Source: an uncultured Myxococcales bacterium (GTDB lineage Bacteria; Myxococcota; Myxococcia; Myxococcales; UBA5297). Taken from it: 64,000 nt of DNA. The number at the start of each line of letters is the position of its first letter. The stretch's first letter is position 1. Under the pieces are notes generated by a model that saw only the letters and a list, made by a program, of their open reading frames with translations, had not been told where the DNA came from and did not search any database. The translations under genes and the position numbers were made by a program. Positions 3,629-61,941 of this stretch are shown one piece after another. The stretch is from contig CALEOC010000253.1 of the NCBI GenBank assembly GCA_937910285.1, positions 90,817 to 154,816 of the forward strand. The letters run 5' to 3'.

Positions 3629-4705
3629 ATGGCCCTGCCCATCGAACCCCCGCTCGCGCCGATGCTCGCCCGGCTGCAGGCCGACCTCCCGCTCGGCGAG
3701 GGCTGGCTGTACGAACCGAAGTGGGACGGGTTTCGCGCCATCGTCTTTCGCGAAGGCGAGAGGTTGCGACTCGTCAGCCGAAACGGACAGCCACTCGAGC
3801 GCTACTTCCCCGAGCTGATCGAGGCGCTGCGCCAAGCGACTCCGGTTCGGTGTGTGCTCGACGGCGAGATCGTCATCGAGACTTCGGCGGGCCTCGACTT
3901 CGACGCACTCCTCCAGCGCATCCACCCGGCGGCCTCGCGGGTGCGCAAGCTGTCGGTCGAGACTCCCGCCTCGTTCGTCGCCTTCGACCTGCTCGCCGTC
4001 GAGGAGAGGAGCCTGCTCGAGAAGCCGTTCTCGGAGCGGCGGCGTCTGCTCGAGCGCGTCCTGGAGGGCGGGCCGAGGGTCTATCTCACGGCGCAGACCT
4101 CCGACCCGGAGATCGCGCGGCGTTGGTACGAGCAGCTCGAGGGCGCGGGCATCGAGGGCGTGGTCGCCAAGCGGGCCGGGCAGGTCTACGTCCCGGGCGA
4201 GCGCGTGATGGTGAAGGTGAAGCACGAGCGCACCGCCGACTGCGTCATCGGCGGCTACCGGCCGGCGGCGAAGGGCGGGGGCGTCGGCTCCATCCTGCTT
4301 GGCCTCTACGACGCGCAGGGCGAGCTTGTCTACGTCGGCTTCGCCTCGGCGTTTTCGGCTCCGCAGCGTCGCGAGATCCTCGAGCGGCTGCGGCCCTTCG
4401 AGGGCCGCGCGGGATTTGCCGAGGGCAAGGGGCCCGGTGGACCGAGCCGCTGGAATCGCGGGCACAAGCTCGGCTTTGTCTCGGTCGCCCCGCGGCTCGT
4501 GTGCGAGGTGAAGCTCGACAAGCTGCAGGGCGAGCGATTTCGCCACGCGGCTCAGTTCCAGCGCTGGCGCCCGGACAAGGAGCCCCGGGAGTGCACCTAC
4601 GAGCAGCTCTCGCTGCCGCGAGGCGGCCGCCGCCCGATGCCGCTGGCGACACCCGGGGCTGAAGAAACCCGAGGGCTCGAGGCGATCGATGAAAAGGCGC
4701 GCTGA
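3629..4705 (+). CDS. lig: ATP-dependent DNA ligase (LigC/LigD ligase-domain type, standalone)
   Basis: The adenylation motif I KWDGFRA (KxDG, catalytic Lys) lies in EPKWDGFRAIVF. At 358 aa it is typical of short bacterial ATP ligases. The opposite-strand ORF 3518-4786 is an arginine-rich artefact. Confidence 0.85.
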   Translation: MALPIEPPLAPMLARLQADLPLGEGWLYEPKWDGFRAIVFREGERLRLVSRNGQPLERYFPELIEALRQATPVRCVLDGEIVIETSAGLDFDALLQRIHPAASRVRKLSVETPASFVAFDLLAVEERSLLEKPFSERRRLLERVLEGGPRVYLTAQTSDPEIARRWYEQLEGAGIEGVVAKRAGQVYVPGERVMVKVKHERTADCVIGGYRPAAKGGGVGSILLGLYDAQGELVYVGFASAFSAPQRREILERLRPFEGRAGFAEGKGPGGPSRWNRGHKLGFVSVAPRLVCEVKLDKLQGERFRHAAQFQRWRPDKEPRECTYEQLSLPRGGRRPMPLATPGAEETRGLEAIDEKAR

Positions 4706-17876: not shown

Positions 17877-18067
17877 GCGTCCGGGACATCGGAAATCGCG
17901 TCCGGGACATCCGAAATCGCGTCGGGGACATCCGAGATCGCGTCCGGGACATCCGGAATCGCGTCCGGGACATTGGAAATCGCGTCCGGGACATCCGAGA
18001 TCGCGTCCGGGACATCCGGAAATCGCGTCCGGGACATCCGAGATCGCGTCCGGGACATCCGGAAATC
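17877..18067. repeat. Tandem array A: 9 copies of 21-22-bp unit GCGTCCGGGACATCCGAAATC
   Basis: It is a near-perfect tandem repeat. Its reverse complement matches array B (~14/21 identity). Confidence 0.85.
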
Positions 18068-18096
18068 GCGTCCGGGACGTCTCATCCGCGGTGATG

Positions 18097-18201
18097 CATG
18101 TCCCCGCTGCCCTTCGGCATGTCCCGCGAGCCCTTCGGCATGTCCCGCGAGCCCTTCGGCTTGTCCCGCGAGCCCTTCGGCTTGTCCCGCGAGCCCTTGC
18201 A
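18097..18201. repeat. Tandem array B: 5 copies of 21-bp unit GCATGTCCCGCGAGCCCTTCG (inverted relative to array A)
   Basis: It is a tandem repeat. Together with array A it forms a ~320-bp imperfect inverted repeat centred at ~18085, between two convergent genes. Confidence 0.85.
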
Positions 18202-59468: not shown

Positions 59469-59935
59469 CTACTCGGACTTGCGGGACTTGCGCTTGCCGG
59501 TCGCGAAGTAGTCGATGGCCGGCTTGAGCGCGTCGGCGAGGACCGGATCGCTGTCGGCGATGCGCACCAGCGTCGTGTAGTAGGCGAGCGCCGCCCACCA
59601 GCACTCCGAGCGCGCGGTCAGGATGGTGTCGGAGAGCGTCTGGGCGAGGGCGGCGGTCTCGGCCTCGACGGGCTGGAGCTGGTTGGCCAAAGCGAGGTCG
59701 TTGCGCATCCCCTCGACCGAGATGCCCGGCAGCGACACGCCGTAGCGGGTGGCCAGGGTGGCCATCAACTCGACGATCCACTCGCCGTTGGGCCGCATCT
59801 TGAGCGCCTGCGAGCGCTCCTCGGTCGACAGGGGCTGCGTGAAGGGCTCGCACTTCTTCGCCGCCGTGCGAATCCCGCCGCGCACCTCCTCGATCGTCTC
59901 GGGGCTGGGGTTGTTGCTGCCAACACGGTCTTTCA
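59469..59935 (-). CDS. Hypothetical protein (155 aa)
   Basis: It has balanced composition and starts MKDRVGSNNPSPETIEEV. It has no recognisable domain. Confidence 0.4.
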
Positions 59936-60096
59936 TAGGGCTGCCTCCTGTCTGCGGGGTGATTGACGCGGGGAGGCTATGCGCAAAAGAAACCGGGGGA
60001 CACCAAAAAATATCAGCGGGCCCGGGAATGTCGTAAATCGGACTGCAAATCGACTCGATGACACCCCCGAAAGGGTGGGTGATCCAAAATGGCCTA

Positions 60097-60342
60097 TCTC
60101 GGAGACCGAATCTTCGGTCCTCGAGACCGGATTTCTTGTCGCCCACACCCGATGGAGGCTCCCGGAGACCGAGCCATCGGTCTTTCCGACACGACGTCGG
60201 CTCGGCGAGGCGGAACCGCCGGTCCTCGACACCCGAGGTCGGCTCCGAGAGATCGGAGCGGCCCTCCTCGAGACGAGACGGAGGCTCGGAGAGACCGAGG
60301 GTTCGCTCGTCTTGAGGGAGTATCGGCTCCGGAGGGGCGAAC
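60097..60342. repeat. Tandem array of ~6 degenerate 42-bp units, each containing a GACCGA-NNNN-TCGGTC-type hairpin
   Basis: The units run from (T)CTCGGAGACCGAATCTTCGGTCCTCGAGACCGG... through CCCGGAGACCGAGCCATCGGTCTTTCCGACACGACGTCGGCT and onward. The 42-nt periodicity is visible as a 14-aa pseudo-repeat in both overlapping ORFs. Confidence 0.6.
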
Positions 60343-60552
60343 CAAGCGCGCACTGGGCAGGCGTGGCGCAAGGGCGAAGCGGCTGCCGTTTCGCGGGAAC
60401 TCCGCCGCCGGTGCCGGCGCTTTCATGGACCGCGGTGGATTGTGCGGCGGGCCATCAAGGTCGGGGGCGCTCAATGGGAGAAGGGGCAATGAAGGCCATC
60501 GAAGAGCTTGTCCAGGGAATGGCTCAAGGGCGTGAATGGAGCCTGATGGGCG

Positions 60553-61941
60553 ATGCCGACGCGGTGCGCGGCCTGCTCGAGCGCGTCTACGACGAGCGGT
60601 ACGGCTCACCACAAGGATCGCTTTCAGCTACGAGTGAACCTTCAGAAGAAGGATGACGCCGCCTCGTATGCCGGCTGGATCACCGCCGAGAACCGCTCCT
60701 CTGGCCCGTATCAGGGCACCTCGTTCGTCTGGATGCCCGGCGACAAGGGCAGCGTCGCGGTCCTGGTCATTGGCACCGACGGTTTCGGCGCCGACAGCGC
60801 CATACTCGGCCGGCCCGGGCACGGCCGTCGACTGCGAGCGCTCTCGCGCCTTCATCGAGGCAGCGTCTGGGTCAAGCCCGACCTCCTCGACATCGCGACC
60901 GAGGTCCCATCCGCCGTCACCGATCGTTGGCCCGAGATCCCGGCCGCGCTCAAGCAATACGGTCGGGTCATCTACGCCGCGGTCGCCGTGCGCGGCGCCG
61001 GCGACGGCGGCGCGGTCGAAGACCTGCTCGACCTCTTCTTCCACGAACACGGCACGCCCCTGACCGCAGATGCGAAGAAGCGTTGGGACGGTCGCCTCGA
61101 AGAGATCGCCGGGGCCGTCTTTCCGGCCGTCGAGCCCGAGGGGGTCCTCGCCATTCTTCGCGAGCGGCGGTTCGTCGTCCTCGAAGGTCCCCCGGGCACT
61201 GGGAAGACCCGCCTCGCCTATCAACTCGCCGACCGCATCGGTTCGGCCACCCGGGTGCAGTTCCACGCGGCGCGCACCTACGAAGACTTCGTCGTCGGGC
61301 TCTTCCCCAGGCCGACGGGGGACGGCTTGGCTTTCGACGTTCGACCCGGTGAGCTGCTCGTCGCGAACGCGGCGGCGCGCACGCGCGAGCATCTGCTGGT
61401 GCTCGACGAGATCAACCGCGCCGACCTCGCCCGCGTCCTCGGCGAGGCGATCGTGCTCTTCGAGCCTGGCGAGCTGGACCGGAGCGTGCGCTTGCCGCAT
61501 GCGCCCGAGGGCCATGAGCCCGAGCTCCGGCTCTCGCCCCACCTGCTCGTCCTCGGCACCCGGAACACCGCCGACCGGAGCATCGCGCGGATGGACATCG
61601 CCATCCGCCGGCGCTTCGCGTTCATCGAGCTGTGGCCCTCACTGCACGCGGTCGAGCACGGGGGCGTCGACTTCGCCACCGAGCTCTTCGCCGATGCGGT
61701 CCACACCTTCGTCGAGTTCGCCGACGAGGAGACGCTGCGCCTGCTTCCCGGCCATGCCTACTTCCTCGATCCGCGGCCCGATCTCGAAATCGCCGGACGC
61801 GCCGACCGGGTGGCGCGCCGCATCCAGTTCGAGCTCTTGCCGCTGCTGCGCCACTACCTCGACGAGAAGCTGTGCGCGGGAGCGAGCGAGGCTGTCGCCG
61901 GCCTCGCGGACCGAGTCGAGGCGCGGCTCTTGGAGCGCTGA
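60553..61941 (+). CDS. mcrB: McrB-like AAA+ GTPase subunit of a type IV (modification-dependent) restriction system; N-terminus may begin at 60489 in another frame (frameshift)
   Basis: Walker A is VVLEGPPGTGKTRLA, Walker B is LLVLDEINRADLARVLGE, and the McrB-specific motif is MDIAIRRRFAFIEL. Confidence 0.8.
   Translation: MPTRCAACSSASTTSGTAHHKDRFQLRVNLQKKDDAASYAGWITAENRSSGPYQGTSFVWMPGDKGSVAVLVIGTDGFGADSAILGRPGHGRRLRALSRLHRGSVWVKPDLLDIATEVPSAVTDRWPEIPAALKQYGRVIYAAVAVRGAGDGGAVEDLLDLFFHEHGTPLTADAKKRWDGRLEEIAGAVFPAVEPEGVLAILRERRFVVLEGPPGTGKTRLAYQLADRIGSATRVQFHAARTYEDFVVGLFPRPTGDGLAFDVRPGELLVANAAARTREHLLVLDEINRADLARVLGEAIVLFEPGELDRSVRLPHAPEGHEPELRLSPHLLVLGTRNTADRSIARMDIAIRRRFAFIELWPSLHAVEHGGVDFATELFADAVHTFVEFADEETLRLLPGHAYFLDPRPDLEIAGRADRVARRIQFELLPLLRHYLDEKLCAGASEAVAGLADRVEARLLER

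Follow-up and report, generated by a model that had tools for sequence, protein, structure and literature searches.

A degenerate 21-bp tandem array as putative cis-partner of a small orphan gene in an uncultured Myxococcales bacterium

In a stretch of 64,000 nucleotides from an uncultured Myxococcales bacterium (GenBank assembly GCA_937910285.1, contig CALEOC010000253.1, positions 90,817 to 154,816; in the following, the window), a tandem array is located between the restriction gene mcrB and a divergently oriented gene encoding a protein of 155 amino acids (aa). Judged by its occurrence across related loci, the array is the cis-partner of the 155-aa gene and not of mcrB, and both together constitute a recurrent module of array and small gene. 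As to its function, a helically phased, protein-binding platform on the DNA that would control the small gene is tentatively favoured.

Identification of the array

The array extends from 60094 to 60345 and consists of 12 units of 21 bp, equivalent to six units of 42 bp. The self-identity of the region 60095–60345 reaches 0.56 at a lag of 42 bp, 0.54 at 84 bp and 0.55 at 126 bp, compared with a mean all-lag maximum of 0.36 and a highest value of 0.447 in 2,000 shuffles. The lags 21, 63 and 105 are likewise elevated (0.45–0.48). Wrapping of the sequence at 21 bp from position 60094 results in 12 units in perfect register without any indel, and a repeat-family search returned six copies at a spacing of 42 bp with identities of 65–77%. 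Lag statistics were used for the description, since the array was missed by Tandem Repeats Finder down to a score of 30.

The consensus of the 21-bp unit on the forward strand is nGnTCnnnGAGACCGrA. A-type units (GGCTCsGAGAGACCGAGnnn) alternate with B-type units (CGGTCCTCGAGACnCGAnGTC), which gives rise to the super-period of 42 bp. The initial annotation of the window had taken 42 bp as the unit; this length holds as a super-period, the basic period being 21 bp. The conserved GGCTC frame that it had quoted is correct, with five occurrences 42 bp apart (60157, 60199, 60241, 60283 and 60325), and so is its description of the sequence as a degenerate tandem array of old age between two divergent genes. 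The intergenic region comprises 552 bp in a window with a G + C content of 70%. The array is separated by 144 bp from the ancestral start of mcrB and by 158 bp from position 59936, where the 155-aa gene starts. In the rest of the 64-kb window the array motif does not recur above chance.

Arrays upstream of the 155-aa gene family

Loci carrying homologues of the 155-aa gene, designated by L numbers, were scored by the best lag identity in 126-nt windows up to 600 bp upstream of the family gene. The pooled background of 6,323 windows has a 99.9th percentile of 0.571 and a maximum of 0.603. This percentile was exceeded by 10 of the 12 loci with usable upstream sequence, and the peak lags are all 21, 42 or 63–65 bp. 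The best lag identities are 0.65 in the window, 0.71 in L002, 0.80 in L020, 0.60 in L021, 0.59 in L026, 0.97 in both L028 and L030, 0.87 in L031, 0.98 in L032 and 0.62 in L033. The array-positive loci represent about six lineages, in which the start codon of the family gene is found approximately 110–210 bp from the array. Their neighbouring genes differ by lineage and from those of the window (a kinase, an HD-domain protein, ThiC, an SpvB-like protein and others). As a random 600-bp stretch passes the threshold in less than 5% of cases, the probability of six independent lineages passing it by chance is estimated at about 1e-8.

The arrays of the family contain 7–17 units of 21–22 bp, and their lengths cluster near 12 units or about 250 bp. 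Around 16 units of GTCGTAGTCGGAGACTTCGAC were found in L020/L024, 15 units of CATCCCATGCCGCCGCGGCGA in L028, around 11 in L031 and 12 each in L026, L032 and L033, while L030 has at least 12 units up to a contig end inside the array. The units of L021/L022 closely resemble those of the window. One metagenome-assembled genome (MAG) contains two paralogues of the 155-aa gene, each of which is preceded by an array of its own.

Within the species, the copy number is constant. The nine contigs of this species, taken from different samples, share the intergenic length of 552 bp and differ by 0–1 single-nucleotide polymorphisms, which are located outside the array. The syntenic locus L002, with an McrB identity of 88%, has the same unit count. 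These data lend no support to the slipped-strand copy-number switch that had been considered for the array. An additional 210 bp in L010 was at first taken for five extra units and turned out to be a run of 222 N.

The L030 contig ends within its array, and the array-bearing intergenic region of L010, which is a contig of an NCBI MAG, holds the 222 N mentioned above. The arrays thus appear to disturb short-read assembly, and for this reason their frequency in MAGs is probably under-counted.

The 155-aa gene and its product

The 155-aa gene is encoded on the reverse strand (59469–59936) and has a G + C content at third codon positions (GC3) of 0.97. Its product starts with MKDRVGSNNPS and contains an SECWW motif. 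A homologue search with the protein identified 16 homologues with identities of 46–100%, and a profile search 1,071 clusters at E ≤ 1e-3. The sampled family members are annotated as hypothetical, and the named ones originate from Polyangia and Myxococcales. As far as seen, the family occurs in Myxococcota MAGs and metagenomes only; a scan of metagenome contigs with the protein yielded a single partial relative (L007).

No homologues were found in 72,556 plasmids, 50,697 phages and IMG/VR, and the protein has no match in Pfam, NCBIfam or PADLOC. The AlphaFold2 model (mean predicted local distance difference test score 89.8) is all-helical with a helix of 54 residues and matches no known fold.

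Relation of the array to mcrBC

The homologues of mcrB encode 486 aa, and their start corresponds to the ATG at 60489. Compared with the orthologue of L002, which is intact at 486 aa, mcrB of the window (60489–61941) has an 8-bp deletion near 60598–60600, resulting in a 55-codon 5′ open reading frame (ORF) and a second ORF at 60553–61941. As each of the nine same-species contigs carries an identical truncated 435-aa call, the frameshift is real and no sequencing error, and the window mcrB is a probable pseudogene.

In the initial annotation, the array had been described as lying directly upstream of mcrB and had been proposed as an operator array for a regulator of the restriction module. The position is correct and an operator is the kind of explanation favoured here, but the functional link to mcrB does not hold; the array instead tracks the small gene listed there as hypothetical. 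An operator array or leader regulating mcrBC is considered highly improbable. Only the position of the array upstream of mcrB, at 144 bp from the ancestral start, and its conservation in the syntenic L002 speak for this reading. In contrast, no periodic array is present within 675 bp upstream of an mcrB with 82% identity (L003–L006), which comes from a Myxococcota MAG and is situated in another context with a cellulase gene upstream; absence upstream of orthologous mcrB genes had been named beforehand as evidence against a functional role. Furthermore, arrays precede the family genes at loci without mcrB, which is absent from the array-bearing loci outside the lineage of the window and L002. 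In the syntenic loci L018/L019, a deletion of about 221 bp has removed four of the six 42-bp units (a–d) together with the AT-rich spacer, L018 3030–3222 corresponding to window 59937–60345; mcrB (486 aa) and the ORF of the small gene are intact in these deletion variants. The mcrB of the window is itself frameshifted. Thus mcrBC is a lineage-specific neighbour of the array and not its partner.

McrB proteins with identities of 70–88% were found across more than 100 clusters, among them Acidobacteriota and Myxococcota (e.g., P0072, Vicinamibacterales; P0005, Myxococcota), which suggests that the mcrBC module has spread horizontally in recent times.

Coding potential of the array

Periods of 21 and 42 bp are multiples of three and all reading frames of the array are nearly open, as would be the case for a repeat encoding heptads or 14-residue protein repeats. 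Moreover, a 225-aa ORF spanning the array on the forward strand (59979–60656) is called in five public assemblies. One codon phase has fewer mismatches among the four core units (0.31) than the other two (0.44 and 0.51), which is a weak bias only, and no substitution pattern among the units is strong enough for a reading frame. Opposed to a coding function are the GC3 of 0.7–0.8 in two phases of the array, compared with 0.97 in the adjoining 155-aa gene, and the translated repeats from different arrays, which have nothing in common. Due to the weak GC3 and to the unit periods of homologous arrays (22, 43, 64 and 65 bp), through which no reading frame could continue, the array was classified as non-coding, and a coding repeat appears barely credible. 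The 225-aa ORF, which shares the weak GC3, exists only because its reading runs into the frameshifted 5′ end of mcrB; it is probably a spurious gene call.

The statement that the array is not composed of clustered regularly interspaced short palindromic repeats was confirmed, as the units follow directly on one another at 21/42 bp, with no spacers and no repeat-spacer alternation. No Cas protein was found among the immediate neighbour genes scanned, the rest of the 64-kb window not having been searched for cas genes.

Junction motif and spacer

The gene-proximal edge of the array is marked by a junction motif, TGATCCAAAATGG (60080–60092; CCATTTTGGATCA on the gene strand). The spacers between array and gene cannot be aligned between lineages (37% column identity), with the motif CCATTTTGG(ATCA) as the sole alignable element. 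It is kept in L002 (~4505–4520), L033 (~2232–2250) and L025 (~2863–2880), and variants are present in L020 and L026. On the forward (anti-gene) strand the motif contains a −10-like CAAAAT, which is located 4–9 nt before the first unit and directed into the array, and a promoter scan of L025 identified TGGACA-16-CAAAAT at this site. Sigma-54 and integration host factor sites at the motif were compared with their consensus by eye and rejected.

The adjoining spacer (59937–60079, reverse strand) is AT-richer, with a G + C content of 0.5–0.6 compared with 0.70 in the window, and a Shine-Dalgarno sequence, AGGAGG, is located at 59944–59949. The promoter and the 5′ untranslated region of the small gene presumably lie in this spacer, in which no match to the sigma-70 consensus was found. 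After the array of the window, a weak 5-bp stem followed by ATTTTGG is the sole feature of this kind, and no terminator-like site was found after the arrays in other loci.

Inverted repeats and folding

Three perfect inverted repeats, to which no strand is assigned, are present in the array. GACCGA-ATCT-TCGGTC (60104–60119) and GACCGA-GCCA-TCGGTC (60167–60182) both start at offset 10 of the 21-bp phase and are in register; in L002, the stem of the latter is retained and its loop is altered. The third, CTCCGA-GAGA-TCGGAG (60243–60258), starts at offset 2 and is not homologous to the other two, as it is 8 bp out of register. All three had been quoted in the initial annotation and do exist; the claim of a perfect inverted repeat in each unit applies to three of the six 42-bp units, including the one off register.

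The density of perfect 6-bp stems in the array ranks in the top 1% among 266-nt windows. The in-register 6+4+6 dyad is Watson-Crick paired in 65% of the cells, compared with 15–44% at other offsets, and the departures from its consensus comprise 26 broken pairs, mostly with a change on one side, and 10 that are still paired. In-register perfect inverted repeats arise where the right half of a dyad pairs with the left half of the dyad that follows. A strict alternation of half-sites was also considered. It was dropped in favour of a model with one dyad per unit, because the reverse-complement self-similarity of the whole array in the window (0.52) is not significant (mean shuffle maximum 0.47, absolute maximum 0.59).

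The forward strand of the window array has a folding z-score of −3.6, and of the 9 arrays with excess folding stability, 7 have their lower z-score on the anti-gene strand. No such excess was detected in the arrays of L026, L027 and L033 (z between +0.9 and −1.0). Due to these three arrays, the two-turn period and not secondary structure is regarded as the conserved property, the hairpin potential varying across the arrays compared. By direct reading, the units of other arrays hold loop-less palindromes of 8–10 bp that are unable to form hairpins (CGCCGCGGCG, GCGATCGC, CGACGTCG and GGTCGACC). At the in-phase dyads no asymmetry between G·U (G·T) and A·C was seen. An array of dyad sites acting on the DNA level is favoured because of the inconsistent stability, the mostly one-sided breaks of the dyad, the lack of this asymmetry and the loop-less palindromes.

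With Rfam 15, the best scores in the window were 16 bits, compared with gathering scores of 70–75, and no matches were obtained in 11 related loci. Together with the three homologous arrays without excess stability and the lack of a G·U asymmetry, this leaves the cluster of small structured RNAs proposed before without support.

Transcription of the array into a repeat RNA, either divergently to the small gene, from CAAAAT toward mcrB in the window, or as its long leader, is rather unlikely but, with the functionless minisatellite treated below, one of the two main alternatives. Such an RNA could, like ToxI or CsrB, act as a multi-site sponge or an antitoxin-like partner of the 155-aa protein. 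The conserved AT-rich junction motif with its CAAAAT on the anti-gene strand, the match in the L025 promoter scan and the folding bias toward the anti-gene strand, including the z-score of the window, all point in this direction. The layout is also comparable to that of type III toxin-antitoxin loci, in which tandem repeats are situated directly upstream of a small gene; in ToxIN, CptIN and TenpIN, repeats of 34–45 nt precede a gene of approximately 150–170 aa. The array is likewise a direct-repeat array immediately upstream of a gene of similar size, and its super-period of 42 nt falls inside this range.

Against a repeat RNA, the −35 region is not conserved, no terminator-like site follows the arrays at other loci, no compensatory pattern could be seen, and the folding and Rfam results given above do not agree with a structured transcript. 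No type III antitoxin repeat as short as the 21-nt unit is known. The base period is 21–22 nt, the repeats of the window are about 45% divergent, and no terminator is located between the repeats and the gene. No toxin of the ToxN/AbiQ, CptN or TenpN type was found, the all-helical 155-aa protein matching neither the ToxN/AbiQ model nor any fold or Pfam, NCBIfam or PADLOC entry. An assignment to the type III toxin-antitoxin systems fails on unit length, repeat identity, terminator and toxin fold.

Conservation within and between arrays

The TC dinucleotide of the unit (GA on the gene strand) does not vary among the 12 units and is unchanged in L002 at the 12 aligned sites, and the in-phase positions of GAGACCG are present in 8–10 of the 12 units. 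Conservation within the array correlates with identity between species (r = 0.53 over 21 phases). Independently, L033, with a protein identity of 54%, was found to have an invariant in-phase GA and the TC-N5-GA spacing. In six arrays, TCGGTC occurs in phase on the gene strand about 12 times per kb, compared with a background of 0.8 per kb. This core emerged only from a targeted count; among exact 6-mers with at least three copies in at least four arrays, only GC-rich words from the L028 group were found. The similarity of the unit consensus between different arrays is mostly marginal (13–14 of 21 positions). According to these comparisons, the constraint on the array is position-specific: the 21-bp phase, the in-phase TCGGTC core and the TC-N5-GA dyad recur between lineages, and most other positions drift.

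Proposed mode of action

In the model favoured here, the array would act at the DNA level as a platform of about 250 bp that offers one short dyad-symmetric site per two helical turns. A sequence-specific, probably dimeric protein would bind cooperatively along one face of the helix, and, bound just upstream of the promoter of the small gene, would set its expression. The most economical candidate for this protein is the product of the 155-aa gene itself, i.e., autoregulation. This assignment is a guess, as the predicted structure shows no recognisable DNA-binding fold. A further-reaching version is doubtful, according to which the array and the gene form a two-part module of the Myxococcota, the orphan-fold protein with its SECWW motif assembling on its own 21-bp-phased array into a nucleoprotein structure. 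Such a structure could serve as a self-contained chromosomal switch or as a centromere-like landmark without a nucleoside triphosphatase (NTPase).

Several observations weigh against a functional pairing of array and small gene. The array of L025 has about three clear units, L027 is borderline, and L034 has no array, another gene ending 40 nt upstream of its family gene. As shown by the deletion in L018/L019, at least one lineage can do without the array. The array identity between the window and L002 (77.5%) is in the range of the neighbouring intergenic DNA (76–79%); for comparison, the third codon positions of mcrB and mcrC are 71% identical. Promoter scans of the window and of related loci mapped no promoter. 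In addition, 21-bp arrays are not exclusive to the 155-aa gene, as a second pair in the window adjoins no family member.

This pair consists of 9.5 copies of GCGTCCGGGACATCCGAAATC (17877–18078) and 4.9 copies of GCATGTCCCGCGAGCCCTTCG (18096–18198), the cores of which are mutually inverted (GGGACAT/ATGTCCC). It fills the gap between two convergent genes for PMT_2-like and YfhO-like membrane proteins, and no paralogue of the 155-aa gene was found nearby. The unit matches an A-type unit of the array at 60094 in 14 of 21 positions, a value reached in 0 of 300 shuffles, and has GATGTCCCGG in common with the L025 array. The pair could belong to a wider family of 21-bp arrays or represent further targets of the same factor.

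Its position between unrelated convergent genes and its unit match, the overall divergence between the window and L002, which looks neutral, and the partial deletion in L018 would also be compatible with a functionless minisatellite, i.e., with 21-bp satellites that spread or expand in intergenic DNA of Polyangia and are kept beside the gene by descent. This explanation is considered quite unlikely. Descent alone cannot hold the 21-bp phase, the invariant dinucleotide and the TCGGTC core between lineages with a protein identity of only about 50% and spacers that cannot be aligned. Moreover, in about six lineages, whose neighbouring genes are unrelated, the arrays agree in their side of the gene and are similar in their distance from it.

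Comparison with known repeat systems

Iterons of theta plasmids (P1 incC/incA, F oriS, pSC101 and RK2) are direct repeats of 17–22 bp at a spacing of about 21–22 bp beside a Rep gene. The array agrees with them in its direct repeats of about 21–22 bp beside a gene, in the AT-richer stretch nearby and in a unit sequence that varies while the period holds; repeats at about two helical turns are present as 12 × 21 bp in the window and at 21–22 bp in nine other loci. Unlike in these systems, the 155-aa protein is all-helical and lacks the winged-helix Rep fold, and no adjacent winged-helix Rep initiator was found. The spacer 59937–60079 has the lower G + C content stated above, and the best match to a DnaA box is 7/9 (TGATCCAAA at 60080).

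In its anatomy, the array is most similar to sopC of the F plasmid, in which a direct repeat of 43 bp occurs 12 times and every copy contains a 16-bp inverted repeat, the binding site of a SopB dimer (PMC3177203). Common to both are about 12 phased units, a super-period of 42–43 bp or four helical turns, a dyad per unit and an adjoining small partner gene. Phased repeats each with a short dyad, as in a partition centromere, are also present in the window (65% paired, TC-N5-GA core). The window locus differs in having no ParA/SopA ATPase or ParB-fold protein and in being chromosomal and solitary. Its array is situated upstream and not downstream of the gene and consists of far more degenerate units.

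In type Ib/II partition operators such as R1 parC-ParR and pMF1, an upstream repeat array serves as operator and assembly site for a small autoregulatory DNA-binding protein. In contrast, the window locus has no NTPase gene, its small gene is monocistronic, and its repeat motif is unrelated to that of Myxococcus pMF1, the parCAB iterons of which use AGATGTCT (PMC3235114). No gene for a partition NTPase (ParA, ParM or TubZ) or for a ParB, ribbon-helix-helix or ParR-type protein was found at any locus, and the fold of the 155-aa protein is unlike theirs. An assignment to sopC-type centromeres, iterons or partition operators fails on the protein side and on the genomic context.

It is improbable that the array is a remnant of such a system, namely the replication origin or partition core of an integrated or former mobile element. 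For this origin speak the combination of 21–22-bp direct repeats at two helical turns, a small gene and an AT-richer stretch, which is the anatomy of iteron origins and sopC-type centromeres, and a DnaA-box-like TTATCCCACA in the distal element of L028/L031. Against it, no Rep, ParA, ParM or TubZ gene adjoins the array at any locus, the plasmid, phage and IMG/VR collections contain no homologue, and the contexts are chromosomal, with housekeeping genes as neighbours on contigs of up to 192 kb. The DnaA-box match of the window does not exceed 7/9.

The module of gene and array is described in no database. The roughly 1,000 family clusters appear to be without annotation, and many members are preceded by an array. 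No relevant work was found in the literature on tandem repeats of myxobacteria, either of 21 bp or in intergenic regions. If the 155-aa protein binds its own array, it would represent a new DNA-binding fold and, together with the array, a new class of repeat-protein pair. It would also be a compact natural case of cooperative, phase-dependent assembly on chromosomal DNA, similar to plasmid centromeres and iterons yet outside replication and partition, and the arrays at 17877–18198 would be additional genomic targets of the protein. For practical purposes, the arrays appear to break metagenome assemblies, and gene callers place spurious ORFs over them.

Elements of the Kofleriaceae-type loci

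Two further elements were observed in the Kofleriaceae-type subfamily. In L028, L030, L031 and L032, an invariant hairpin or palindrome GGCGCC-N4-GGCGCC is located about 20 nt upstream of the start codon and before the Shine-Dalgarno sequence, its loop varying between CACA, CAAA and CATG. On the distal side of the array, L028 (1615–1750) and L031 (115–255) have a segment of about 150 bp in common that opens with GAGTTATCCCACAG and holds the DnaA-box-like sequence mentioned above; this segment is absent from L032.
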